DNA of 33,535 bases from Vezdaea acicularis. Its lineage: Eukaryota. Within the stretch, counting starts at the first letter, position 1. Each line of letters begins with the position of its first letter. The stretch is from positions 372,001-405,535 of the forward strand of contig JAPEUI010000002.1 of NCBI GenBank assembly GCA_026025075.1. Reading direction: 5' to 3'. The notes below the pieces were generated by a model. The model made no database searches and had not been told where the DNA came from. It saw only the letters and a list, made by a program, of their open reading frames with translations. The position numbers and the translations under genes are program-made. Of the stretch, positions 4,244-33,535 are shown one piece after another.

Positions 4244-5898
<1,655 letters not shown>

Positions 5899-10583: not shown

Positions 10584-13372
10584 TCACTGGCGGCCTAAGG
10601 ATAACCTCTGGAAGGCTTCGCCGAAGCTTTCATTCGGGGCCGTTGGACGATTTGAACCCAAGTTGCTGCCAGTACGGTCGACGGAAGACCCATAATGCTC
10701 GCCATATGTGCTAGCTCCGTCGGGGCCCCTTGGAGCGTTGAAATGTGGATAGCCGAACGCGGGTGCGGCTGTTTGCGGCATGGCCATACCACTAGTGAAG
10801 CCACCTCCACCAAAGACATTCGGACGCACTTGCTGGGGAAATTGCGAGTACTGGTACCCATATGGATTTTGTTGATATGATGTTGTCTGATACGCCTGTG
10901 GGTTCAAAGGCGTCATGGATGATGACGGGGCGGTGCGGAATTGACCCATACCAAGTCCCATCCCAGGATAGCCTAGAGTCTCCGAGGTGTGGGTGTCATA
11001 GGGGCTGGTGCGGCCAACTGGAAGGCTCCCGGAGCTTGCTGGTGAAAGGCCAGCTGTAGGTGGCGAGATAGCTTGCGGGTTGACTGCAAACATCCAAATA
11101 CGAGTCTTGTAAACCTTGAATAAGTCGGTTACGAGAAGATTGAAGTTGATGTAGACGTCCGCGAAATAGAAGAAAGTAAGTTTCTTCCAGTCCCTGCTCA
11201 CAGTCAGTCGTCTTGCAATGAAGGAATTAGATAGCGACCGCACATTTGAAATTCTGCATCAAGAATTTCCATCTGTAGATGATGTTCCATGACCTTTTGC
11301 TGACAAACGCGCTTTGCCTTTGCTTCGTTGCCCTCTTTGTCTTTGAGAGCCTGGATTTCATGAGGCTGGGCAAGGCGTCGGACCATTTTCATCTTGAATT
11401 CGCCGCTGCCAGCTTCTTGAGGATTCTGCTGTCCGTTTTGTGGGCCCATACCGCCAACTGTACTTGACCCCATCATCACGCCAGGAAGTACCCCATTAGC
11501 CACTCCGGCCTGGCTAGCGCCCCGCGGCGAGTACATCATGAGCCATTTGTAATGCTCCTGGCCATAATGCGTCTTCAATTCCTTGGCTTCTTCCCAAGTA
11601 ATGGAGTCATGGGCTATTGTACCCAGATCCCAACCACGATCGCCGTCCACGATGACTAAATCACCAACCTTGACTTCTAACCCATTTCCTTGTTCAACAT
11701 AGGCGATTTCTGCTCTACAGCACTTGAACGTGACTATGTATAGAAGTTGGTTTGACTCTTGCTGCGATGCTTGAGCCAAAGCATTGTCCTGGACACCAGG
11801 ATAAAGAGGTCTGTTCATGCCCATCAAGGCCTCTTGGCGTCTTTGAAAGGCATCGTTGGTACCGAAGTAATCTGCTGCAATTTGATGTATGCGTAAATGT
11901 TCCATTCTCATAGCGTGTTCTGCTCGATTACGGTGTAAATAAAAATAGGTATACTCACCATTGTCGTCTCTCTGCGGACGGTTTTGATTATCGACATAGC
12001 TTAAACCATGATCCAGGATACCAGAGATCCCTGCGCCAAGGCCGTTCCCGGGGTTGGATCCACTCGCAGTACCTGAGCTGCTGATGGAGGTGTTCCTAGG
12101 CGCAACCTCGGCAAATGAATGGCGTCGACTTTGGGATATATCCTCCAAACCAGGAGGACCCGCAGTTGATTGCCAGTGGCCTCTCTTGAGACTCTCGAGC
12201 TTTCTATTTTCCAGTGGGCCGAGGGGGAGGAAGTGACCATCGTGGTCCGTTGCCACTTCAGAAAACCGTCTACCTACAAAGCCATAGCGACCAAATCCTT
12301 GTAGCTCTCGGACGTCATCGGCCTCGTCCACGGCATTCTCAGAACCTTCAACGATGGATCCGCGATCGCGCTTGGCATTACCTTGAGGAACGAAGAAGCC
12401 CTTGTTGGAACTGGTGGTGGTTGATCTGGTCCGGATCTTTTGGCTCTCAAGGTCAAGGTTACTCGCAGCTTGCCTCAAGTCCGAGGCGGTTTGTTTCAGG
12501 CGAGCGTTCTCTCGCATCAGTTCCGCTACCGTCTTGGTACTCTCGTATGGCCGCCTAGTAACCTGTTTTAAATCTTTGGCAATTTCCTCATCGTCTTCTG
12601 TCTCGCGAAGTTGACCCAAGCCATTTCCATCGGTCGCCATTTCACTCAGCATGCTAGGACGGGACGGTCGATGCTGAAGTCCAGATACCTGATTCGACCT
12701 TGCCGCTGCCGGAAAGTACGAGCTATTCGCCGCTGGAAAAGTTCCGTTGGAATCGGCATCCTGTTGACCAACAGAGTATGATTGCGAACGGTATGTCTTA
12801 GGGGTCGGATGTAACGGGAACGTGAAAGGAAAAGAGGACTCACCACCAACACCACGGCCTGTGGGGCTGGTCACCAGGTCTGCCTCCCCGTAAGGGCTTG
12901 GTGGTATTATACTTGTTGGAGAAGCTTGAGGCATTTCGGAAAGGCGAGCTGGTGGTTCCCTCCGAGGATCTTTACTCCATATGTTGCCAGCAGTCCAACC
13001 TGTGGGATAATTATGAGTGACAAAGGACGCATGACTGTTCGCCAGAGCGGTTGAGGTGGGGTTTTGATCGCCTGATGGGGTGTTCGGTTGAGTGCTTGTA
13101 GGCGAAAACGCACTGAATGAGCTCTTGCGTTGTGCAAGAGGTTGGAAGTCGTTTAGATGTGACGGCCGACGAGCGGTCTTGAGTCGATGAGAAAATAACG
13201 AATCTTGATCATCATCAGATGATGCGAGGGCTTCAGAATCAGGGGTGGACTTCCTCGCACTAGTCTTGGTTTTCTCAAGCAGATAAGCTCCATTGGCCGG
13301 GCGATTGTGGCCGATAGATGCGCGGTGGTTCAGTGCCGACACCGTCTTCGTATCCGAGGGCGGATTCATCAT
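10584..13372 (-). CDS. PSP1: PSP1-domain protein; intron 11194-11243
   Basis: LYIVTFKCCRAE, GDLVIVDGDRGWDLG, RRLAQPHEI..KEGNEAKAKRVCQQKV, MEILDAEFQM|DWKKLTFFYFAD..INFNLLVTDLFKVYKTRIWM are typical of the fungal PSP1 C-terminal domain. Long Ser-rich N-terminus; start taken at ATG ATG 13372. Confidence 0.88.
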
Positions 13373-13452
13373 GAATTCTTGTAAGATGTTCTTGGTTTGA
13401 ATGTCAAGGCTTGTGGAGATGATGAGGTGATGGCGTGATGGCTCCCAGACCT

Positions 13453-13852
13453 GTTCTTGCAATGTATGAAGTCTTGCAAAGATGAGATCTCGAAAATAAA
13501 GTGAGGTCTAACGGCTCGTGTCAGGGGCTCATTCCTGTTGGATTGATGAATGTGAAGTGACTGACCTAGGCTGCAGCCTGTATGAAAGGTAGTTCGCAGA
13601 GTTCACCAGACTTTATCTAGCATTGACAAGCAGTGTATTTCTGCTACGCCCAGGTTTAGTTGTCTGTTCCTTGGCTAATAGTCAGCAACGTTCTTGTAAC
13701 GTTTGAAGTCTGGCAAGAATGAGATGTTGAATTAAAGTGAGGTCTAACGGCTCGTATCAAGGGGCTCATTACTATTGGATTGACGAACGTGCAATGACTG
13801 ACCCAAGCTGCCGCCTACATGAAAGATAGTGTGCAGAGTTTACCAGACGTTA
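13453..13852. repeat. Imperfect direct duplication, about 160-bp units at 13453-13615 and 13690-13852 (period about 237)
   Basis: Shared blocks such as taaagtgaggtctaacggctcgt, ggggctcatt, ttggattga, tgactgacc, gcagagtt.accagac. Confidence 0.92.
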
Positions 13853-18751: not shown

Positions 18752-21700
18752 TCATCTTTGAAACCATGGAAACTTCTTCCTCGAAGGGTCAGTGGCGCCT
18801 GCACCAGGAACTTCAAGTTGTATGCTCCTCTCGTATAAGGCCTAATATTGGTTCATCAGCACACAAGGTTCTCATTCCAGTCGCAGGAAGAATGAAGCTT
18901 GAAACACCGAGATCAGACTCACATCGTCATCCTTGTAAAATATGCACTCGAGGATCAGTCTCTGGACGTCTATGTTGCGCGATAATTCGGGATAAGGATT
19001 ACTGCGGCTCCGTTGCAGTCCGACTATGACATCCCCCATGACCTGGAACTTTTTCCAGTTGATACGATCCTGGTGGTCGCCGATAAAGGTCCGATTTCCT
19101 TGCTCAGCGGAGACAAGATCACGACGATGTAACGGCAGGAATGGTATTCGCTCGGAGGACGTGTTCTCCCACGCTAGGCGGTAAGCAAAATGACTCCGCT
19201 GTGTACCCATGAGTATTTCTAGCCTCATGAAATTCTTTTGAGGTTCATGCGCCACGAGCTCCCTTGTCTGCGTGAGACGATGTACGGCGTTCCCGTTTAT
19301 CCCAGCTATGACGGCTCCAAGCGCATTGTAGTTGTTGAGGTATCGGAGTTTCTAATCTTTTTGTTAGCCATCCAAGAAAGAAATGAGTAGCCACAAGGAG
19401 TCTTTTACCCAGGCGACGCTCATGAATTTTTCCAAAGCTTGAGCGCGGTGTTTGGGCTTATCACGTAGCAGGATCATATTCGCGACCCAGTAGGCCACGT
19501 GGTTGAAATGGTTTATCATCCTGTTCACGTTCTCGACGCTTTTACACGTTTCCTTCTTATCTGCAGGGAGACTGACATGCCGAATGAGATCTCGGGGCCG
19601 AATAGCAGAGAACATGATCCAGTCAATTCGAGTCAATTCGGTGGCTATGTCCTCGTCCGAAGTCTCCATGAAAGCATGCCATTGAAGCTTCGTCAGATGG
19701 GTTCGTGGCGTGGGCAGGAGCAATTGTGCCTCCCTCTCCGCAGCCTCTACGCTAGTCGGTAGCGTTTGCGATGAGCCCGTCGAGATGATGGTGATGTTAC
19801 TAGCGCCCGTACTCCGGGCGTTTGACGTGGTGGGAGATCCCAGTAACGTTTCTTCAGTATCTGCTGTCATGGCGCTTAACTGCCTCTCGAGATCATCTGA
19901 GCCCGACGGAGCGCTTATGGTAGCTATTGAGCTCCTCACGGAGGAAGTCGTGCTCAGGAAGCTGTCCGTGATCTCACTGTAATCGCGATTGTGATCGCTG
20001 TCTGCCATGGCCCAAATCCCATCTTCATCCTCGATCGCCGCATCCAGATTCGCTCGCATCTGCTGAACCGCGACGGCGAAGACTCGCTTTGTTGCTATTC
20101 GTGACATGAAGCTACCAAGGCGGTTTCGCGTGTGAGGGTGAGCGAAATCGCCGGGATAATCCGTCGTCCATCTGACCAGAACACCGACATGCCTTAGCTG
20201 AGAACTGATCCGGCTCATATAAGAGGCCTCTTCGCTCTCCGTCGAGTCGAACCGACGGATGATCGAATCCAGGAGCTTTCCAGGCGTGGCAAATTTTCGG
20301 TACAAGCACAAGAACGTGGTCCCAAAGTTGGTATCGGCCTTTGACAAGGGTTGGCCTAGAAGACGGTCGACGAGGTCCTCCAGCGTGTCACCCGTCGCCT
20401 TTGCAGGCTTCTCCATGATGGACTCGTTGTCTCGCCGGTCTAGCAACGGAACATCATCAATATCGGGATACGCGTCATCTTTCTCGTCATCCATGTCCAA
20501 AAAGGACTCGACCACCCTCGTGCCCGCACTCGACTTGAATGGGGCGTCTGACACCATCGTCAGGCCGAGCCCATTCTGGCTCGCATGTCGAGGGTCTCCC
20601 TGTCTTTGACCCGGCTTGGCGCTGTTTGAGCCGCTTCTAGATGAAACGCGATGCGCACTAGACTTTGATCCGTTCGATCGCGAGCTGCGCCGGGTGACCC
20701 CATCGTTTGGATATTGGCTGGCATCCTTGACGCCGGGACTCTTCTGCCCCAGGGCGGCTTGCTCCGAGCTTGCTCTGCTATGCCGAGATCCTTGCTGACC
20801 TCGTGGCTGCGGTGACATCGGCTGTTCGCGTTGTGAGATTGAGTTGGAGCGTTGCCGGACCCCCAACGGTTTCATCTCCTCGGTCCGGCCCATTTTGATA
20901 GCTTTGGCAACAGCATTCAGGCACCTCTTCTGGGTGTCGGGCGAGTCCGCCGATGTTTGGAAACATTCCACACCGCTCAAAATGATACCCGCTTGTTCGA
21001 TCTTGTTGGGGTTTATCTGGCGTGCACCTGATGGACCGTCGCATTTGCAGGAGACGAGGATGCAGGGAATGTCAGCGTCCATAAGCCCGTCTGAAGCAGA
21101 GTTTCTCGTCAGTACAATTGCTTCAACGCTCAACGCGGGTACCGCTTGAAGATGAGATGGAGCGTTCAAGAAAACTTCGAGATAGTTCTGCCATGGTGAA
21201 AACCACGTAAAGCTCTCCTCTAAGGTCATCGAACACCTCTTCCCGAACTCTATCGAAGAAAGGAGGAGAGAAGACTCACTCAGCACATCGGGTATCATGG
21301 ACAGGCTGTCCCGGTTCTTGATATCGTACAGAGTCATGGCGCCATGGAAGATTGGTGTCGGCTGGCCATCCACAAACTTCGGCCATCGCACCTCTCCATT
21401 GTCTGCCAGCTCGATACTCCCCAGGCTCAGTTCAACGAGGCGAATGATACAGACCGCGTCTCCGATCGATACTCTCCTTGATTGCACCGCTGTCGTCGGA
21501 GGTTGCCGGGCACCAAACGCATGCTGAATGAAAGTTGATTTACCGACCCCGGGCGCGCCAAGGATGGCGATGTTCATCTCCATCATTTCAAGCTTTGAGG
21601 TGACACCATCATTAGTCCAGAGCGCTTCAGCTGGGAGAAAAAAGGCTTGCAACGGACTCAAGGCCGAGGGTAAGGGGAGATGGTCAATCGGCGAAACGCA

Positions 21701-22494: not shown

Positions 22495-24763
22495 CGTCCC
22501 CGGTCTTGGGCGTGAGAGCGTCGGAGGCGTCTGGCCATGCGCGATCGTCCGAGGGCTCTGGGAGATGAGGGCAGGCAGAAAGAGGACGGCCGGCGCAGTT
22601 GAAGTACAAGTACGTTCGCAGCCATCGCACGGGCTGCGGTGCGACGAGCGACGTCCAGCTTCTGCCAGCGTGAGAGCGGCCGTTGAGGAGTTGGGGAGGG
22701 AATGGACCAGCGCGCGTACGAGCCTCGCACCGCACCCGTCGCCCGGTGGCCGGACATGGAGCTGCTTCCTGCCCTCACGCTGGCCGCGCCCGCAGCCAAA
22801 CACGTAGCACAGAACAGCATGTTCGCCCATCCATCGCCACGAACGGCGGCATCATTATACCTCACCTTCACGCACGATTACTGTAACCGTCCACGCCCAC
22901 GTCCGCGCCCATGCCCGGCGGCGGGGAATCCCCGCGGTTGGGCGGGCGACCCGGATCTTGCGTCTTCACGGCGGGAGCGTGCGCCATAGGCCTCGACGCC
23001 ATGGCCACCGTCGCTCTCTCTCGCTCTTTCCTCTTTCTCTCTTTCCTCTCTTGCGCTTTCCCGTTTCGCCCGTTCCTCTCTTGCGCTTTCCCCCCCCCCC
23101 GCTCTCTCGCTCCTTCCTCTCTTTCTCCCTCGCTCTTTCCTCTCGCGCTCTCGAGACGCCATGCCCGCATCAGTCCTTACTCGTCCTGGACGAGGACGGT
23201 CCGGGAGTTGTCCAGGACGCCGGGAGCCCAACATCAACCGACAGGAACACGGTTGGGCGAGGCGGAAGGGCGGTGTCTCAGCCCATTGGGTCCCGTGGAG
23301 GGAGCATCCGACGGGGCCTCGAAGCTGGCGCGGAGCATTATTGGGCGGGCCACGATGATCGCGCACAACGGTTCCTTGGCCGCAAAGGGGCGTAGGTGGG
23401 GGAAGGGGACGGCCGTCTTCATATTCGTGCAGGATCGACGGGCGGGCGCGAGAGGGCCACGGCAGCGGCGAACGAGGAGAGGAGGAGAGGAGAGGAGAGC
23501 GGAGGGGAGGGGAGGGGAGGAGAGGGGCCGGGAGGGCAGGCGGGAGGGCAAGTCGCGCGCTAACCCTAAAGCACGAACGCCACTCGCCTGGCTGGTTCGC
23601 GCTGCCCCTTTGTCGCCGTCGCCCTCCCTCGCCCTTGCCCCATTGATCTGACCTTCCCCGTCTCCCACTCGCTCTTTCCCTCCCCCGGTGTGCTCTCCGC
23701 TCTCCGCTCTTTCCCCCCCCCCGGTCCTCTCTCTAATTGCACACCCTCTCCCTCCTCCCTTCCCAGCGCCAACCGCCAGCGACTTCCCCCTTTCTCCCCA
23801 ACAATTTGGGTGGGCTGCCCTTTGCTTTTTTGCGTCTTGCTGCTGCGGTTGCTCGCTTCGTATTCGAGCTCCTCGATGCATCGATGCCTCAACGCCTGCA
23901 CGAGTACATCAGGGCAACGCTTTTGCTGCAGTGGACGGGAGCACGAACTGTGGGTGGCCGTGGCAGGCTTGCAGGCGATCCGCAGGAGTGCGCCCGAGGC
24001 CATTGGCTGGCGAGCCACGCGAACTAGCAGTAGGCGAACCGACGGACGCCGCGACCCCTGCGCTCCCCTCGCTTCAGGCCACTCCGCCTGTCCCCCCCGC
24101 GGGTCCTGCACGCTTGCGCTCCCTCCCCCCTTGGCGACCCAGCGACGACCCAGCGACGACCCTTTGACGAGCGACAATGACAGCGAGCCCTACCGAGCCC
24201 TACCGAGGCCCCTTCCCATTCGTCCGTTTCGCGGTGCCCGCCCACGCTTGCCCATTGTCCTCCATCGTCCCCCCTTTGTCTCCTCTGTCCCCCGTCCTCC
24301 TTTCGCTGCGGCGCCGTCCGTTCTTTCTGGACGGCCTCACCAGTCGCTCTCGATGTGCGATGTCACCTCCATCGCGTGCTGGAGACAACGAAACGAGCAC
24401 GCCACGGCGCACCGTCGTCCGCCCTCGCCGCATCCAGACGGGGCCCTCTCCCAATGGCACCGTCCCCTCGCGCTACTGTATCGCCATGATGCCGGTCATG
24501 CGCCTGCCCAGCGGAGGGTGACCAGGCGCGCCCGTCACCCCGTCACGCCTTCACGCCCTCACGCCCGTCGCGCCCAGACTCGCCGTGCCAATGTCCTCTC
24601 GTTCCGAGGATAAAGAGCGGCGTGCCGGCCGCGATCTACACCAGGGGCGGCACGAGACAAGCAGCCATCCCTCGTCTTCCCCATTCAAATATTGTTGGCT
24701 CCGCCTCCAACCTCTATTCTTTATCTTTCTGACCACCGCTCTCGTTATCCATTCGCTATCCAC

Positions 24764-24854
24764 TATCCATTATCCTCTATCCTCTATCCTCTATCCTCTA
24801 TCCTCTATCCTCTATCCTCTATCCTCTATCCTCTATCTTCTATCTTCGATCCTC
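24764..24854. repeat. (TATCCTC)n heptanucleotide microsatellite
   Basis: Nine perfect units at 24771-24833, flanked by variants TATCCAT, TATCTTC x2 and GATCCTC. Confidence 0.95.
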
Positions 24855-24942
24855 GGTCCACCATCGGCGGGGTGGCAGCTGTCATTCGAGAGAGCTTGCA
24901 TGCACAGGCGATGCATATGGCCCGTTTAGGAAATTTCCCATC

Positions 24943-26203
24943 ATGATGGTATGCCGTGCGCCCTTTGCCCCACAATCTCGACAAAAAAGCATCCACGGTG
25001 AGACTTCACCGCCGCGATCAATTGCTGACGGCTTCGCAGGAGCGGCCAGGTCGCTCGTTGACACACCCGCTGCGAGAAGAGACTTTGGTGCGCAAGTCAC
25101 GGGTCAAGCAAGGCGACCCCTTCGATCCCGACGAGCTTTGTCGGAAATTGAGACGGCACCAGAGGTATCTACAGGAGCAGAAGGAACTGCGTCGGCAGGC
25201 GAGAGAGAGGGAAGCGAGGGAAGCGAAGGAGCGGGAGAGACGGTTCGGTGTAGCCGCAACTGCGAACGACTTGGTCGATGTGAAAACTCTACGAGCCCGG
25301 GTGAGAGCACAAGGCCTGGATGAAGTCAAGGAGCAATGGCGTGCGCAGATCAAAGAGGATCAGAGGGTCGCGCAAGCCAACAGGACTGAAGAGATTGCTC
25401 CGGTCAAGAGCCAAGGGCCAGCTCAGGCCAATAAGACTGACCGACGTACTCCCGTCAAGAGCCAAGGTCCTGCTCAAGCCAAAAAGACTGAAGGGCGAGC
25501 TCCAGTGAAGACCGAAGGGTCTGCTCACCTCAAAGCACCGGGACGAGAGCCAGAGGCCAGTCAAGAGACCTCTTATCATCATACGCCCAAGGTGGCGGCG
25601 AAGGACTTCAAACGGACGGCGACGCCAGACCCGCTGAAAAAGAAGAGGATGCATAAGCTGTCTCGGCCCCTGCTCAAAGAACGCTCAAAACTGCATGATG
25701 TGAACGAGCCGATACGTCGGCCCAAGACCGGAGGGCGAGAGGATGGGGATGTCACGACGTCGGAGATGCATCGAAGGCGGCAGACTCTCATGACAGCCGA
25801 GTACGACGTCCTCATGGACCTGAAGCCTGCGGGCAGAAGGACGGGCGACATCAGGCCGCTGAGCACCGGCGATCTTGCCTGGGTGGATGAAGCCGATGCG
25901 GTCGGCGACTCTTCACCGGAACGATCGTATGTCTATGGACCACATGACCGTCACGACTGGACCGAGTCAGATGCACCGGCTCCAACAGACAAGCGCCCGA
26001 CGCTCAAAAGTCGCATATCGCCGTTGTTCAAGCATAAGAAGAGCCCGCTGAATGATGGCCGGGAGTGCGATGCACCTTCAACGGCGCCCATCGTCCCAAC
26101 GCCGCCGCCACCGCCGCCGCCTCCGGACGACAACGCTGCCGATCCTTCCAAGAAGCGGCGGAAGTCACGACTCAACCTCAAGGCATTGTTCCGAAAAACG
26201 TAG
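24943..26203 (+). CDS. Uncharacterised basic, coiled-coil/disordered protein; exons 24943-24948 and 25040-26203
   Basis: ATG ATG|GTATGC..GCTGAC..CGCAG|GAG joins in frame to the long ORF. Charged helix, 17-aa repeats, poly-Pro, KKRRK basic C-terminus. Confidence 0.7.
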
Positions 26204-27354: not shown

Positions 27355-27642
27355 CTCAGCGCCTTAATCATCAAAATTTGCTGCGCTTCTTCAGAGCAAG
27401 GCCAAAAAAGATAATAGAAGTTTTTTTTTTTTACTAATTTTGTTGGATATCTTACATAAATAAAGAATATTCTAATTAATCTATATCATAATAATATAAC
27501 ATATTCTACAAGAAAAACAATCACACAAGCATAAAATCACCTTTGGGAGCACAAAAATGCATATATGCTAAACTTATGATCATTAAGTGTAACAAGAACA
27601 TATAAGTGATTTTTACAAGAGATATTTTTTTATATCTGTAGC

Positions 27643-28020
27643 TGTAAGAACGCGACGGCATCCGCCTAGAGCGCGCCGGCGCGCCCTAGACGGCTGCTCT
27701 TGCTTAGACGCCGGCGGCGCTCAGGGGACGCTTAGTCAGCGCGCCCCTTATATATATATCGAGTCGGGTTCACTAGGGACGCGGCATCAAATAGTCTTGA
27801 TCTATAGCTAGTTCTCGGAATCGATTTATATAACCGCAATCTATTCATTATATCACTATACCGCTATATCTATACAGCCCTGTAACATTGCTAGCTATCG
27901 CCGGTGGCCCGCCTACCCCCATAGCCTATTAAACACGCAGTGACACCGCAGGCGGGCCGCAGACGGCGCCGGCCTACCACGCTCTCAAAATCAGGGGCAG
28001 CTATCGTGCCCGTCCTTACA
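27643..28020 (+). mobile_element. Solo LTR (family B, copy 1), 378 bp; strand given only relative to the other copies
   Basis: TGTAAGAACG...CGTCCTTACA termini, TSD GTAGC on both sides, internal TATATATATA, homologous to 28660-29038. Confidence 0.92.
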
Positions 28021-28659
28021 GTAGCATACATAAGCATTATTTTTAATAGTCTAGTGAGTATTTTAGCATTTTATCTGTTTTTTTAATAGTTATATATATG
28101 TGTATTTGTTTATTTTTTACTATTTAAGTTATTAATTTTTTAGTAAAAGCATTGTAAATAATTTTTTAATCTTGTAGTTATTGAAAATATTACTTTAGAA
28201 TATAAAAATCAAACTTGAATGCTATCCTGATTGATGATTCAAAATCTAACATAACTGCATTTTGATGCTCCAAATGATAAATTTTGTGCTTCTATACCTG
28301 GTTTGCTGGTAAATATGTCATTAGTAAATTTGATTATAAATTTGGATCATATAAACATTTATTATCATTATGAGAACTTATTAGTGATTTTGCAAGAAAA
28401 AGAATATTTAGCTAAATTGTGACAATAAATCATATAGGATTCACTAGTCTGCCTCAGCACAAAAAGCATTAATGATACGACTCTTATATAAATATTTGAT
28501 TGAATTAATATAATAATTTATTATTACATAACCTATAACATATTATCAGAATCAAATTTGTACTTTTATCTTCAGGGTATTTTACATGTCAAAATTTAAC
28601 ACAAGCAAAAAAATATTTTGCTTATTCAAATACATGATATATTCTGCATTGATTAATAC

Positions 28660-29038
28660 TGTAAGAACGGGCACGATAGCTGCCCTTGATTCTGAGAGCG
28701 TGGCAGGCCGGCGCCGTCTGCGGCCTGCCTGCAGTGTCACTGCGTGTTTAATAGGCTATAGGGGGGTAGGCGGGCCGTCAGCAATGGCTAGCGATGTCAC
28801 AGGGCTATATAGATATAGCGATATAGTGATATAATGAATGAATTGCAGTTACCTGAATAGATTCTAAGACTAGCTATAGATCAAGACTATTCGATGCCGC
28901 GTCTTTAGCGGGCCCGACTCGATATATATATAAGGGACGCGCTGACTAAGCGTCCCCTGAGCGCCGTTGGCGTCTAAGCGAGAACAGCCGTCTAGGGCGC
29001 GCCGGCGCGCCCTAAGCGGGTGCCACTGCGTTCTTACA
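28660..29038 (-). mobile_element. Solo LTR (family B, copy 2), 379 bp, inverted relative to copy 1
   Basis: TGTAAGAACG...CGTTCTTACA perfect 10-bp terminal inverted repeat, TSD AATAC on both sides; reverse complement aligns along its full length with copy 1. Confidence 0.92.
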
Positions 29039-29081
29039 AATACTATATGAAAATTCTGCTGCAAACAAGATTATATTCTCT

Positions 29082-29119
29082 TGTAAGAATGCGGTAACAT
29101 CTGCCTAGAGCGCGCCGAC
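29082..29119 (+). mobile_element. First 38 bp of family B LTR (copy 3), interrupted by the gypsy element
   Basis: tgtaagaatgcggtaacatctgcctagagcgcgccgac aligns to the start of copy 1, then switches abruptly to TGTCAGG at 29120. Confidence 0.85.
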
Positions 29120-29463
29120 TGTCAGGACACGGGGCGTCCTGGCATCGATACGTCAGGGCACGGGGCGTCCTGTCAGTAAACGGTGTTTATGAAGAAGTTG
29201 TTTCATTCATCTAGCTAGGGGATTCATCTATATATATAGGGCAAAGGATATCCGGTCGTGGCTGCCTGGACAAGACAGCGCTGCTAGTCGCGGCAGGCGC
29301 TGTCCGTCCTAGGGCAGTCGCATGACGTACAAGCGCTGCCCCTATTAGTAGACGCCATAGGATCGCTCCTTATCCTTGCGTCCAGATGCCACTACCCTTT
29401 AGCCCCTATGTCCGGGCGATGCTTCCTCCTGCCCAGACGCCCCCTACCTCGTGTCCCATAACA
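29120..29463 (-). repeat. 3' LTR of the chromovirus, 344 bp
   Basis: Minus strand TGTTATGGGACAC...GTGTCCTGACA imperfect terminal inverted repeat, internal TATATATATA, directly preceded by a PPT. The partner LTR is not in the window. Confidence 0.82.
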
Positions 29464-29476
29464 AATTGCCCCCTCC
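29464..29476 (-). other. Polypurine tract (plus-strand primer)
   Basis: Minus strand GGAGGGGGCAATT immediately 5' of the LTR's TGTTA. Confidence 0.75.
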
Positions 29477-29540
29477 GGAAAAGATGTCGTCCCGATATCC
29501 ATTTTATAGAGACGAGGTGCTATGCCTACCTACTGTTTGA

Positions 29541-31937
29541 TTAGGCTCTTGGGGGGGAGCGGCCGTAGCGATCAGACTCGATTGAATTCGCGTCATCATT
29601 TTCAGGATCGTCGTGCTCCTCATGTGAGTGGCCTGCCTCTGGATCTTGATAATCTGCGATGTCCGTAGCTCTAGCAGATTGTCCTTGGCGAGTGTCTCTA
29701 TCCTTGCGTCGAGTAACAGGTGGCTCTGCTGAATGAGACGGGGCAGCTTGACGAGCTGGCGAGAACGGCGTTGGGTAAGGACGTCCATGCTGGGATCGGA
29801 CGTTAGGTACGGACGGGGTATCGTCCATTGAAGGTTCGAGCATGCTTTCAATCTCCAAAAGGCGTTGCTTCTGCCTGTCCTTTTGTCTCTCATATCGCTC
29901 CAAATCCTCTCTCAACCATTTTGATTCTTCAAATAGAGCCTTCTTGGATACCTTGCTAAGACGCTTTGAACTGCCCTTAGGAGGGGACGACGCTTGTCTT
30001 GATGCTGCTGCAGTACGTTGGATTGAAGGTAAGCTATTGTCACCAACAGGAGCACGCACTGGCCGTGGTTTTGCTGCCTTTGATTGAAGATTTTCAGGTT
30101 GATTTTGTCTGGACGTCGTCGTCGGAGAGGATATGTTACCTGTCTGGGCGCTGGAGGCATTTATTGCTGTCCATCCCGACGTTGTCCTTGCCGTAGTCGT
30201 TGAGTTGTTACGATCGATTGGCCCAGGAGTGATGGATTGCTGTACTGGCGAAGGAATTGGTGGAAGCGCAGTGTTTCCAGTGCCATCGGCCCTATAGACC
30301 TGTCTAGACAACCTAGGAGTAATGGGCTGTTGTACTGGCAAAGGAATTGGTGGCAGCGCAATGTTTCCAGTGCCATCGGCCCTATAGATCTGTCTAGATA
30401 ATGCCTCCATCGCCGTATGTGGGATATAACAGTCTAGAATACCCAGGTTGGAGGGGGCAAGATCATGTATATGGGCCGTTGACCTCGCACTTCCGTTTGC
30501 CAGATTCCAGCCATTTGGGATTGGCCCACGATAGTTATCGCCCAGGAGCTTGACCGTGTCGACTATCCCTACGCGGCCATCGACGAAGAAGTATCCCGCA
30601 CCCTTAGACACATAGTCCTTGACTATGCAGGCATCTTTCTTAAAGTTGAACGGCCAATATTTTGTCTTGCTGCGGTATGAAACGGTTGAGACGATGACAT
30701 GGCCAAATGCCCTATCACTGAGTTTGACGTATACTGGGAAGGCCATCATCCTACCGTCGCCTGCCGAATAACCTCTTGTATCAAGCTTAGGAAGAGGGTC
30801 TCTTGGGTCAAATAGCAGCCAGTCAGAAGAGGACGGGTCCCCGTGTCCATTCGAAGGTTGCCACGTCCTTGCGGGGTATTGAACGTTGGGTCTTGTCCAA
30901 AAAGGGCTAGAAGACAAAGGGATCGTGTCAATAGATGGCGCAGGAGCTGCAAGGGCAGTAGATGTCCAGGCTTGAGCCGAATCAGAAGATTGAGTTGGAT
31001 CAGACGACTGGGCTGGATCATACGCTGAAGCTGGTGCCCTTGCATATGCCCGGGAGGAGGACTCTGGTGCCGTAACTGACCGGGGCGATTGCAGGGCGTC
31101 CGGATATACGCTCGGGGCCATTGGTGCTCGTCGTGTTTCTGCTATGATTTCGGCCATGACTTCTGACCCGATAGAGCTTGATGGTGCTGGCGGCACAGCG
31201 ATAGGACGTCCGGTTGAAAGGCTTGATGACTGTTCGATTGGTAGGAAGCCTGAGGGAGACGATGTCCTTGCCGCTGTAGGCTCCCGGTTGTCTTGTATCA
31301 CTTGACCCGTATTATCGATTGTATAATCCGGTGTAGGCGTTCCAACTGTCCTGGCGGTCATTACCTGATGTTTTCTTCTTGCTTCTACCACCTTCAACTT
31401 ATCACCATAGTCCGTGTACTCAGGTATGGACGCTAGAGGGTCATCGTGTCTGCCCGTGGGTTGCGCCGCGTCCTTGAAACGAGGATAACGAATGATCGTG
31501 CTGCCCCTCATGTGAGAGTTCTCCATGCGGTATATCCCTTTAGTAACGGTACCGTCCTCCTTGGCTGCCTGAATAAGGATCTTGTTTTTCGTCCGGATGT
31601 CTAGCAGAAGTGCCCTCTCAATTTCCCTATCCGTCTTGTCGCAATCCGGATATGCCGTTCTGAAGTCTTCAACGATGTTGTCGTGCAATTCGGGCTGCGT
31701 CTTTACGTTCCAGCAACGTCTGATCGCCCTGCAGGGGAATTCGGAGGGATGGTTTTCGATAAATGCCAGTCTTTCCGCCATTTCGTGGCTGGAAGGATTA
31801 GTAAAGAGGCCAAAGGTGATGTATACCGCGTTCTCCACATCTTGTTTTAATCAGGAACGAGGCCAGGCCTGCTCTACTGGTCTGAAATCGACTTTGAGTT
31901 CTCTCACGGGCGGGGCATCAGATTCGGACGATGCCAT
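29541..31937 (-). CDS. Extra ORF (ORF3) of the chromovirus, unknown function; about 798 codons from ATG 31937 with one in-frame TGA at 31851-31853
   Basis: Open from 31850 to 29541. ATG 31937 (MASSESDAPP..) is in the same frame, 28 codons before the TGA. No motif recognised. Confidence 0.75.
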
Positions 31938-32242
31938 TGCGTCTGGTAGAGCCGCAATGGTTGACGTCTTGATGTTGGTGACGGGACAAGCCCACAGTGC
32001 TGTTGATTAGTATATTTCAATAGATATTACCTGTCGTGAAGGTAGAAGGTTGGTGTAGGAAGGAGGATGAAGTGAGGCAGCGAGAGATGAGGTGAAGCAG
32101 AGCGAGATGAGGTGAGGCGAGGTTGCAGCTCAGCTAGAATTGATTTAGCGATCTAAATAAGCGATTTCGGTAGCTAGTTTGAATATAGGGGTAACTATAT
32201 CAAAATAATACCCCTTTAATCGCGCGATATGACAAGACACAG

Positions 32243-33535
32243 CTAACGCTGTGTCTTTTCAAACCTGCGGACCAGCCGGGGGACGTCTGCCGCAATGTCC
32301 TCTGCCGGTTCCCAGGTTGGATTGCTGTATCCGTCCCATTTTATCTTGTAGAAACTCTTCCCCCCCCGTTGTTCCTGTCCCAATATCTTCTCGACGACCC
32401 ATTCCTCATGCCCGTCAATCAAGAGGGGTCCGGGAGGCGGAAGTCGTCTGTCCCCGATCAATGAATCGTCGGGCGCTTGCTCTAGGTGCGCGACTGATAT
32501 TACCGGATGGATATCCTGAAGATCGGGTGGCAACTTGATCTCATAAGCTAGATCTCCAACCCTGCTCTTGATCCGGAAAGGACCCATCTTGACTGGAGAC
32601 AGCTTGCTTGCCCCGGCCAGCCTGTATCCCTTCTTTATGCCAGTGGCCAGACGCAAGTATACTGATCCGGTCAAGGTAACAGGGGAGTGCTTTGAGTCAA
32701 AATACACCTTCATTCGAGTCTGTGCCATCCGCATAGCGTCCGCCGCGTCCTGTCGTATCTGTACTCTGTTCTCGACAAAGGAGTCGGCGCCAGCATTCAT
32801 ACCCGTAGGGGGAGAGAACGCCGTCCGGGCTTCAACACCATAGAGTAACTCAAAGGGTGTTGACCCGGTGGTGACGTTTGCTGATGTATTGATGCTAAAC
32901 TCTACGTCCGGAAGGATGTCTTCCCAGCCCGACTTTGCCTCAAGGCCTGCCAGCAAGCAGCGTAAAGCAATTTCGACGGTTTGATTTGTCCTTTCGGATT
33001 GGCCGTCTGAAGCCGGATGATAGGCCGTAGTCATGGCCAAACGCGTACTGGCTCTTTTAAACAACGCCTTCCAGAAGTAGCTGGTAAACTTGGCGTCTCG
33101 GTCTGATATTATGATCTGAGGGGCTCCCCAATCCTTATAGACAAGGCGAAAGTACGCTTCCGCCCATTCGACGACGGTGAACGTGTCTCGTCCTGGTACC
33201 AGCTTTATAGCCTTGCTAAATTTGTCTGTGACCGTGAGGATGGCCGTACTACCTCTAGACGATGGTGGCAAGCTGCCCACGAAGTCCATGGTCTGTACTG
33301 CAAACGGCATCGGTGGCGACTGGATTGGATGCAGGTCACCATAGGGAGGATGTCTGGACGGTTTACTGACCGAGCAAGACGGGCATCCTTGGACATATCG
33401 AGCGACGGTTCTTTTCATCCGGGGCATATAGACGTTTTGCCTCAGGAAGTCATAGGTACGGTTGGCGCCCGGATGAGACCTATTGTCATGCGCCCATGTA
33501 AGGATTAGTGGCTGCGCCTTTTCTGGGATACAGAG
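32243..33535 (-). CDS. pol: Pol C-terminus: integrase (HHCC, DD35E, GPY/F) and chromodomain; 5'-truncated by window
   Basis: Frame stays open to the window edge: WAHDNRSHPG..CPSC zinc finger, TMDFV, ISDRD-35-GQSE, MGPFRI, chromodomain EEWVVEKIL..YKIKWDGYSNPTWEP. Confidence 0.96.
   Translation of the reverse strand, partial: LCIPEKAQPLILTWAHDNRSHPGANRTYDFLRQNVYMPRMKRTVARYVQGCPSCSVSKPSRHPPYGDLHPIQSPPMPFAVQTMDFVGSLPPSSRGSTAILTVTDKFSKAIKLVPGRDTFTVVEWAEAYFRLVYKDWGAPQIIISDRDAKFTSYFWKALFKRASTRLAMTTAYHPASDGQSERTNQTVEIALRCLLAGLEAKSGWEDILPDVEFSINTSANVTTGSTPFELLYGVEARTAFSPPTGMNAGADSFVENRVQIRQDAADAMRMAQTRMKVYFDSKHSPVTLTGSVYLRLATGIKKGYRLAGASKLSPVKMGPFRIKSRVGDLAYEIKLPPDLQDIHPVISVAHLEQAPDDSLIGDRRLPPPGPLLIDGHEEWVVEKILGQEQRGGKSFYKIKWDGYSNPTWEPAEDIAADVPRLVRRFEKTQR

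Follow-up and report, generated by a model that had tools for sequence, protein, structure and literature searches.

In the usual view, gag and pol are all that an LTR retrotransposon requires. Extra genes in these elements are rare and lack settled roles even in plants, whose examples are the best catalogued. Plant elements are described as carrying additional ORFs (aORFs), among them sense aORFs located between pol and the 3′ LTR (PMC7264820). For some fungal Gypsy elements, the legend of a figure in Novikova et al. 2010 (PMC2864245) mentions an 'additional ORF with unknown function', and Boty-like Gypsy elements of Botrytis cinerea carry an additional gene, brtn, which is antisense according to the title of the work (Zhao et al. 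2011, as cited in PMC8365987 and PMC7264820).

Here we describe a third gene, ORF3, in a fungal chromovirus. It lies in a window of 33,535 nucleotides from Vezdaea acicularis (GenBank assembly GCA_026025075.1, contig JAPEUI010000002.1, positions 372,001 to 405,535), in which pol, a spacer, ORF3, a polypurine tract (PPT) and an LTR are all found on the minus strand. As far as the plant sense aORFs are described in PMC7264820, ORF3 resembles them in its position, in sharing the gag-pol strand, in being large and lineage-specific and in having no clear function. Unlike them, it resides in a fungal host and in a chromovirus, has neither the membrane anchor nor the signal peptide, env-like features by which many of those described there are defined, and belongs to a family unrelated to Pfam entries or PDB sequences. 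The elements in the legend of Novikova et al. are likewise fungal Ty3/gypsy elements with an extra ORF besides gag and pol, a likeness by description alone. Similarly, brtn is cited as an extra gene in a fungal Gypsy element; ORF3, in contrast, is in sense orientation on the same strand as pol, a distinction drawn from the orientation in the cited title and not from sequence. Retroviral and errantiviral env genes, like ORF3, follow pol and precede the PPT and 3′ LTR, and might also share with it expression from a spliced subgenomic RNA, but ORF3 is devoid of a signal peptide, a membrane anchor and fusion-protein features.

One of our controls, a metagenome chromovirus with 36% integrase identity (L065), has a complete LTR pair, gag and pol and, like the Vezdaea element, a long same-strand frame before the 3′ LTR, in its case open over 454 codons between pol and the LTR. 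This frame begins in phase, immediately after the stop codon of pol, whereas ORF3 begins after a 305-nt spacer, and the L065 protein is unrelated to ORF3 (hhalign probability 0.3%), its only match being a sub-threshold zinc knuckle. The premise of the original prediction, that typical fungal chromoviruses encode only gag and pol, is thus correct for most but not for some of them, judging by the legend in PMC2864245, the cited brtn gene and L065.

Anatomy of the element

The element is visible from the integrase part of pol to what is probably its 3′ LTR (Table 1). Its 5′ LTR, PBS and target-site duplication fall outside the window, as do the RT and RNase H regions of its pol. Within the 430-residue pol fragment, Pfam identified Integrase_H2C2 (59.8 bits, cut-off 25.5), SH3_Tf2-1 (49.3 bits) and Chromo (38.6 bits, cut-off 25.1), the last at residues 379-427 and hence C-terminal. 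The rve core scored 28.5 bits, under its cut-off of 32.6, and covered profile positions 3-102 of 102. The fragment has the hallmarks of a Ty3/gypsy chromovirus integrase, namely an H2C2 zinc-binding domain and DDE core together with a C-terminal chromodomain. It is 98% identical to the C-terminus of P0015, a 1371-aa pol for which precomputed Pfam annotation gives RVT_1, RT_RNaseH, rve and Chromo among its domains.

Table 1. Coordinates of the chromovirus features within the window
Feature	Position	Strand	Description and basis
3′ LTR	29120..29463	-	344 bp, TG..CA, TATA-rich motif inside; from sequence and metagenome repeat borders
Polypurine tract	29469..29476	-	GGAGGGGG; 5 nt upstream of LTR; from sequence
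ORF3	29541..31937	-	799 codons from ATG to stop with one in-frame TGA; from relatives and sequence
Basic stretch, then long helix (probable coiled coil), then acidic tail to stop codon	29841..29954	-	AlphaFold2 (AF2) and identity to P0002
Tandem duplication, in-frame	30222..30401	-	90 bp in two units of 30 codons that are 89% identical; specific to the window copy
Central aromatic/Gly-rich domain, conserved	30411..30935	-	about codons 335-509; best-conserved part of the family
N-terminal domain, conserved	31413..31895	-	about codons 15-175; predicted helical with low confidence (AF2 helices, pLDDT about 40)
In-frame TGA, codon 29	31851..31853	-	TGG (Trp) in relatives; alignment column and metagenome contigs
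Spacer between pol and ORF3	31938..32242	-	305 nt, without ATG; from sequence
RNA hairpin	32215..32275	-	pol stop codon at apical loop; core arms 32230-32243 and 32248-32261
pol, 3′ part	32243..33535	-	integrase zinc-binding domain, integrase core, SH3_Tf2-1 and C-terminal chromodomain; frame runs past window end

The layout at the 3′ end agrees with what had been predicted, that is, a pol stop at 32243, a PPT near 29476 and a gap of roughly 2.8 kb uninterrupted by an LTR: the pol stop codon occupies 32243-32245, the PPT reads from 29476 to 29469, 2780 bp separate the pol stop from the LTR, and in a self-comparison of the window the LTR matched only itself, leaving no LTR copy between pol and ORF3. 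The purine run is canonical and G-rich and ends 5 nt short of the LTR; such a run marks what precedes it, here ORF3, as the interior of an LTR element. The LTR termini form imperfect terminal inverted repeats, and metagenome contigs mark both ends as repeat borders, with variable loose ends at 29463 in four contigs of run X2 and five of run X4, and at 29120 in six contigs of run X3. Summed contig depth, flagged as a poor measure, was about tenfold higher over the LTR than over the internal part of the element, and in run X1 was similar for ORF3 (about 8-29) and pol (about 13-32).

LTR pairs could be detected in 17 related elements; in 12 of these the distance between pol stop and LTR was at most 801 bp, compared with 2780 bp here, as determined with a crude LTR-pair script complemented by inspection by eye of L003, L065, L068 and L072 only. 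L072 is a permuted contig, and its 'gap' contains gag.

Reading frame, homologues and selection

A same-strand ORF of about 800 codons ending some 65 bp before the PPT had been predicted. Position, strand and length (799 codons) hold, with the stop codon at 29541-29543 and 65 nt before the purine run; the frame is not open, however, owing to an overlooked TGA at codon 29. Uninterrupted, it spans 769 codons from stop to stop (29541-31850), or 746 codons from the next ATG, as called in the public annotation (P0001). Homologues carry Trp at the alignment column of codon 29, and all covering contigs in four out of four metagenome runs read TGG at this codon (T>C at 31851, plus strand); a further run, X5, from an air metagenome (share 0.05), was left out of these comparisons. 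Given the Trp codon in relatives, the copy in the window is a recent pseudogene, created by a TGG-to-TGA change in an otherwise intact gene. The intact relative P0014 (768 aa) aligns from 31937 to 29547 and has a single unit of the 30-codon duplication; likewise, contigs in three out of four metagenome runs skip exactly 90 bases (30312 to 30403). The element carries no RIP signature (TpA/ApT 0.76). We also rejected the TGG-to-TGA change as a RIP product, as it is not in a CpA context, which is typical of RIP.

Searching 1.84 billion representatives returned eight matches, of which seven are true: three Vezdaea acicularis MAG proteins plus metagenome fragments. Five proteins, including the window's own, were found at E <= 0.001, and homologues reach E = 1e-131 and lower. 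Of 434 nucleotide differences to moss-metagenome contigs, the tool selected the 27 best supported. Third codon positions account for 18 of these 27 (binomial p = 4e-4), and 15 are synonymous versus 12 nonsynonymous. Together, homologue E-values and third-position enrichment place the frame far beyond chance, and these comparisons indicate that ORF3 is a real, conserved gene under purifying selection.

The family is small and without detectable relatives beyond a few moss- and lichen-associated fungi. Pattern searches for ORF3 relatives yielded 72 matches in JGI metagenomes and 33 in IMG/VR, none of which was confirmed in either collection, and none of 80 related chromovirus loci from JGI metagenomes contained a relative. 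Fusion proteins of pol and ORF3 were absent from the searched length range. A match to a 1047-aa sturgeon CEACAM5-like protein (E = 1.5e-10) was dismissed as chance, as it consists of a single weak match of 59 residues (31 bits) that recurs along near-identical Ig repeats.

Domain organization of the ORF3 protein

All protein features listed in the original prediction are present in the ORF3 translation. Two domains are 40-58% identical to those of two long Vezdaea homologues, compared with 16-35% for the Ser/Pro/Thr-rich, fast-evolving linkers. The N-terminal domain shows 56% and 40% identity to the two homologues, dropping to 16-28% in the linker that follows. For the central domain, the corresponding values are 58% and 49%, with 26 invariant columns in seven sequences; within its codons 411-491, eight out of ten listed nucleotide differences (from the best 27 of 434) are synonymous. 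Toward the C-terminus, the basic and long-helix stretch is 64% identical to P0002, the helix (residues 632-669 of P0014) is the only AF2 segment reaching a pLDDT of 76, and the tail has a pI of 5.0. Domain coordinates in Table 1 were obtained by arithmetic from residue numbers (for the C-terminal part, P0014 numbering plus 30) and may be off by a few codons.

No membrane segment was found in any of three family members, the top 19-residue Kyte-Doolittle mean being 0.99-1.07, and the N-terminus is hydrophilic in all three, with the first 20 residues averaging -0.07 to -0.71; the predicted lack of a signal peptide or transmembrane stretch is borne out by these values. Without either feature, the ORF3 protein is soluble and intracellular, not an envelope.

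Pfam returned no match for the whole protein, a best match of E = 0.93 (JIP_LZII) for three separately searched parts, and only two single-member chance matches across ten family members (Imm74, 0.011; CytochromB561_N, 1.6). A profile search against PDB sequences gave no matches at E <= 10, and the whole protein had no usable match in the ESM Atlas. Hence, no well-described retroelement protein, which had been named as a finding that would count against the prediction, emerged from Pfam, PDB sequences or the ESM Atlas. ESM Atlas matches of the central domain were rejected, with scores of at most 0.87, under the lead threshold, and without Pfam support; among them were an Ascomycota cluster, 17% of whose members carry DUF6590, and a PemK cluster. 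AF2 models were unusable both for the full-length protein (ten sequences, mean pLDDT 31.8) and for the central domain (seven sequences, pLDDT 30.4). An origin of ORF3 as a duplicated pol domain was also discarded, the hhalign probability between the two families being 0.3%.

Origin of ORF3 and alternative explanations

ORF3 has the orientation of gag-pol and sits after pol but ahead of the PPT and 3′ LTR, as sense aORFs do. We consider it probable that ORF3 is such a sense-strand aORF, integral to a Ty3/gypsy chromovirus lineage found in an ascomycete associated with moss or lichen and in relatives of this fungus, and we favor, with similar confidence, its being an element-borne accessory gene. 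Of the predicted accessory gene that is not an envelope, two parts stand, namely a conserved same-strand gene inside the LTR-bounded part and its non-envelope character, while the accessory role itself is probable. Among metagenome contigs, those linking the LTR to ORF3 represent two variants, one with 21 differences over 493 nt (record 2) and one with 86 over 667 nt (record 1), as do contigs linking ORF3 to the spacer (record 6, 2 differences in 675 nt; record 28, 30 in 241 nt). The variants come from one study and could represent orthologous loci of related strains, not independent insertions. Intact ORF3 P0014 (768 aa) and pol P0015 (1371 aa) are each located on a contig of 9431 bp, and because of this shared length we infer that both lie on one separately assembled contig. 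A length of 9431 bp is also the size expected of a whole element.

A passenger origin strikes us as unlikely. In this reading, one chromovirus lineage transduced a gene that was specific to the host lineage or belonged to a multigene family of the host; the gene, either kept by selection on a host-like function or only recently captured, would play no part in transposition. The appeal of a passenger lies in the absence of ORF3 from all 80 related chromovirus loci and from IMG/VR, in the absence of fused forms in the searched length range, and in a GC3 of 0.49, which falls inside the range of the window's host ORFs (0.49-0.72). Vezdaea homologues are, moreover, annotated as separate, stand-alone hypothetical proteins on long contigs of 33-61 kb, and none of the 120 pol relatives listed is on contigs of that size; since the window's own pol is likewise missing there, the source annotations may simply omit pol. 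Yet no homologue outside the Vezdaea/metagenome group was found among the 1.84 billion representatives, so that no donor host family is visible, and the LTR and spacer remain adjacent to ORF3 in a variant of about 87% identity. Transduced genes are, according to PMC7264820, usually present in one or a few copies, whereas ORF3 has several diverged paralogues per genome (three in one Vezdaea MAG) and many of its matches sit on very short contigs, as repeats tend to do.

More doubtful still is a chimera. Pol would then come from a chromovirus that has lost its own 3′ LTR, or in which the 305-nt spacer is that LTR, and ORF3, PPT and the 344-bp LTR would be contributed by another, possibly non-autonomous, LTR element or by flanking DNA. 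The 5′ LTR, being outside the window, leaves room for this arrangement, and the spacer has some LTR-like traits: it starts with TG, ends with CA, contains TATA-like motifs and is preceded by a moderately purine-rich run inside the 3′ end of pol. An LTR starting within 25 bp of the pol stop, or overlapping it, was found in four out of 17 control elements, and none of the 30 contig pieces listed, out of 421, bridges the pol-spacer junction (32098-32311). However, with a summed X1 depth of 9.5-16 the spacer does not exceed pol or ORF3, compared with 150-220 over the real LTR. Within the window the spacer occurs once, and it does not resemble the LTR. Contigs losing alignment at 32185 and 32217 continue partly window-like, which we read as divergence and not as a repeat border. 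In addition, ORF3 and pol are equally close to P0014 (97% identity) and P0015 (98%), on contigs of equal size. An envelope-like gene for cell-to-cell spread, as in errantiviruses or plant Athila-type elements, is extremely improbable: ORF3 has the env position and strand and one long helix, but neither a signal peptide nor a hydrophobic segment (top 19-residue hydropathy about 1.0 in all three members), nor any glycoprotein match in Pfam.

Possible role and expression of ORF3

With ORF3, a fungal chromovirus is seen to carry a third gene that is large and clearly under selection. If it serves the element, ORF3 would be a handle on the ways in which fungal retroelements interact with their hosts; as cargo, it would exemplify gene transduction by a fungal retroelement. 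Its practical value is limited for now. As an accessory gene of the element, ORF3 might encode a non-enzymatic adaptor acting in the element's own cycle, with the C-terminal helix mediating multimerization. Candidate roles would be particle assembly, nuclear or chromatin delivery of cDNA, or blocking of host defense, any single one of which has at best a low probability. The functions offered as examples in the original prediction (anti-silencing, anti-RIP, targeting, captured cargo) are likewise conjectural, the searches having yielded no family, fold or partner for ORF3. We regard as decidedly improbable the far-reaching proposal that ORF3 founds a new class of retroelement accessory genes in chromoviruses of moss- and lichen-associated ascomycetes, encoding a soluble, multimeric factor of unrecognized fold that disarms host genome defense or, with no need of an envelope, carries nucleoprotein from cell to cell or from one symbiotic partner to the other, with a hairpin at the pol stop and the ATG-free spacer serving as a dedicated expression switch.

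ORF3 could be translated from its own subgenomic mRNA, with the ATG-free spacer as leader; we give roughly even chances to such an RNA, as opposed to reinitiation after pol. In the spacer, the number of ATGs is zero, compared with a mean of 3.3 in shuffled sequences, and 3% of 20000 shuffles were free of ATG. It also contains TATA-like motifs near 32185-32200 and a CT-rich pyrimidine tract at about 32036-32122. Further on, a GT at 32030 resembles a splice donor, and after it come a motif like a branch point (32012-32006) and an AG (32001-32000). On motif content, these could be read as promoter and splice-acceptor elements. The mRNA might thus start at an internal promoter, formed by the TATA-like motifs and the CT-rich tract, or arise from an LTR transcript spliced onto the acceptor-like site at 32000, much as retroviruses express env by splicing. 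We rejected the 31-nt GT..AG unit (32030-32000) as an intron, as fungal introns this short are not known, and kept it as a possible acceptor only.

A search of positions 28900-33535 against Rfam gave no matches at E <= 1. The RNA around the pol stop codon is predicted to fold into a stable hairpin (-29.9 kcal/mol, z = -6.35), with none of 200 shuffled sequences folding as well. Its arms of 14 nt are 93% complementary and enclose a loop of 4 nt. Among the best 27 of 434 differences to metagenome contigs, the single one listed within a hairpin arm (32256) converts, in our reading, an A-U pair into a G-U pair.

An additional frame in the gap from pol to the 3' LTR

All element features lie on the minus strand (table). 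The pol fragment is the 3' part of a chromovirus pol (Ty3/gypsy), with Pfam scores of 59.8 bits for Integrase_H2C2, 49.3 bits for SH3_Tf2-1 and 38.6 bits for Chromo, and 28.5 bits for rve, slightly below the family cut-off. The pol stop and the 3' LTR are 2780 bp apart, and the LTR begins 5 nt past the purine run.

Coordinates of the element and of other features in the window
Feature	Position	Strand	Details
pol, 3' end	enters window at 33535; stop codon 32243-32245	-	open frame
Hairpin	32215-32275	-	core arms 14 nt, 93% complementarity, 4-nt loop
Spacer, pol to ORF3		-	305 nt
Inverted repeat	31934-31960		11-nt arms, 91% complementary, 5 nt apart
ORF3	ATG at 31937; stop codon 29541-29543	-	799 codons
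Polypurine run GGAGGGGG	29476-29469	-	65 nt beyond ORF3 stop
LTR	29463-29120	-	344 bp; TG at start, CA at end; imperfect terminal inverted repeats
Palindromic unit	29003-29117		37-nt arms, 78% complementary, 41 nt apart
Foldback-type repeat	27638-29043		inverted-repeat arms in three successive pairs (175, 111 and 108 nt; 83-94% complementary)
Tandem units	25370-25522		three 51-nt units, 73-75% identical
415-codon ORF	24956-26203		contains the tandem units; no Pfam match
Pyrimidine-rich repeat array	24748-24866		reported spacing 14 nt
RasGEF protein	19367-21661	-	
PSP1-domain protein	11207-13462	-	
Homocitrate synthase-like gene	4247-5152	-	HMGL-like and HCS_D2

The original prediction of an ~800-codon frame proved correct in its coordinates and motifs, but the frame is interrupted: codon 29 is an in-frame TGA (31851-31853). 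This leaves an open stretch of 769 codons between stops; counted from the next ATG, as in a public annotation (P0001), it has 746. This TGA aligns with a conserved Trp of the homologues. When contigs of four moss-metagenome runs from a single study were aligned to 28500-33535, every covering contig in all four runs had C instead of T at 31851 (plus strand), that is TGG, and a 768-aa database protein 97% identical to the window's ORF3 (P0014) represents an intact version. The TGA is evidently a lesion peculiar to the window copy. An in-frame 30-codon duplication is likewise private to this copy, since contigs in three of the four runs skip exactly 90 bases (30312 to 30403) and P0014 has one 30-codon unit, compared with two in the window.

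ORF3 as a gene and a protein

Five proteins, including the window's own, were recovered at E <= 0.001 in a word-indexed search of 5.8 billion proteins, and eight matches came from searching 1.84 billion representatives exhaustively with HMMER. One of the eight, a sturgeon CEACAM5-like protein, was discarded as a weak 59-residue similarity recurring across Ig repeats. Three homologues are named, all from one Vezdaea acicularis MAG (728, 634 and 164 aa); the others, unnamed, are ENA and Logan fragments whose contigs measure 1.4-3.6 kb. Conservation is modular: compared with the two long Vezdaea proteins, ORF3 has identities of 56% and 40% in the N-terminal domain, 58% and 49% in the central domain, and 16-35% in the gap-rich linkers. 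Among the 27 best-supported nucleotide differences in ORF3, a tool-chosen subset of 434 across 28500-33535, 18 affect the third base of a codon (binomial p = 4e-4); 15 are synonymous and 12 nonsynonymous, including the stop. ORF3 thus qualifies as a genuine gene on which selection acts.

No membrane segment was found in any of the three members examined (top 19-residue hydropathy ~1.0), and their N-termini are hydrophilic. The earlier view of an accessory gene is supported; by its predicted properties ORF3 is not an envelope protein. Pfam gave no match for the whole protein, 10 members or three separate parts, the family profile retrieved no PDB sequence at E <= 10, the ESM Atlas held no match >= 0.9, and hhalign found no similarity to pol. 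Two AlphaFold2 models were too poor for a fold search (mean pLDDT 31.8 and 30.4), with a C-terminal helix the only segment at pLDDT ~76.

Probable association of ORF3 with the element

The purine tract immediately upstream of the LTR identifies the DNA preceding it as lying inside an LTR element, and no LTR-like repeat was found between pol and ORF3. In the moss metagenomes, heterogeneous loose contig ends at 29463 and 29120 mark both LTR ends as repeat borders, and summed contig depth over the LTR is ~10 times that of the internal part. Contigs span the LTR-ORF3 junction in two variants (~96% and ~87% identity) and likewise the ORF3-spacer junction (~99.7% and ~87.5%), and none of the contig pieces listed bridges 32098-32311. 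These variants, like all the metagenome evidence, stem from one study and could instead represent orthologous loci in related strains. P0014 and a 1371-aa pol relative 98% identical to the window's pol (P0015) are each encoded on a single 9431-bp contig, the size expected for LTR-gag-pol-ORF3-LTR; we infer that both proteins come from a single shared contig. No Vezdaea pol appeared among the at least 120 pol relatives listed; source annotations may omit pol, as the window's own was missing there too. Overall, we consider the whole reading, including linkage of ORF3 to the element, likely; the 5' LTR, PBS and target duplication fall beyond the window.

Related chromovirus loci from JGI metagenomes, 80 in all, served as a control; integrase identity was 39-42% for the best of them, and none encodes an ORF3 relative. 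Of 74 loci processed with a crude script, 17 showed LTR pairs. The distance from pol stop to 3' LTR was between -40 and 801 bp in 12 of these, compared with 2780 bp in the window. Five had longer gaps: the contig of L072 is permuted, and L030, L064 and L077 contain no long frame there. In the fifth, L065 (36% integrase identity; LTRs 99% identical), an open frame of 454 codons lies in the interval from pol to the 3' LTR (L065:5581-6942, plus strand), beginning in phase immediately past the pol stop codon. This frame has no relation to ORF3, and a sub-threshold zinc knuckle is its sole match.

Sense or antisense additional ORFs (aORFs) between pol and the 3' LTR, where ORF3 also sits, are well described in plants (PMC7264820). 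In fungi, the Boty gene brtn is cited as an antisense example, whereas ORF3 is sense. A figure legend in PMC2864245 names an 'additional ORF with unknown function' in fungi, on which its one text supplement gives no further detail, and in passages of a survey (PMC3248453) the sole mention is of nested complex elements that carry extra domains. The full-text literature searched on chromovirus or LTR-retrotransposon additional ORFs, ORF3, fungi and lichen contained no description of the ORF3 protein, and none of the Vezdaea papers retrieved, judged by title or abstract, concerned transposons. We rate ORF3 as an aORF in sense orientation, not an envelope gene, that encodes a new protein family and belongs to a fungal chromovirus; aORFs as a kind are already known.

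Possible expression signals

The spacer contains no ATG (shuffle mean 3.3; 3% of shuffles without any), so the first ATG past the pol stop is that of ORF3. TATA-like motifs and ~85 nt of pyrimidine-rich sequence occur in the spacer, followed by a branch-point-like motif and AG at 32001-32000. This layout would suit either an internal promoter for an ORF3 mRNA or an acceptor to which the 5' leader would be spliced over a long range, by analogy with retroviral env mRNAs; reinitiation after pol could also fit. At -29.9 kcal/mol (z = -6.35) the hairpin is a strong one, and its apical loop contains the pol stop codon; a single listed arm variant preserves pairing as G-U, and no Rfam family matched. 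The ORF3 start codon is enclosed by a short inverted repeat.

Surroundings of the element

The foldback-type repeat directly adjoins the LTR and has an AT-rich centre (GC 0.33), GGCGCGCC-type palindromes and very high summed moss-metagenome depth (up to 260 in X1, one of the four runs); several contigs connect LTR ends with differing points of it. The small palindromic unit abuts the LTR end at 29120. Insertion apparently took place within or next to a repeated palindromic motif, also present at 27652-27697 and 28978-29023. No RIP signature is seen in the element. Elsewhere the window carries ordinary fungal host genes, which places the element at the margin of a gene-bearing region.
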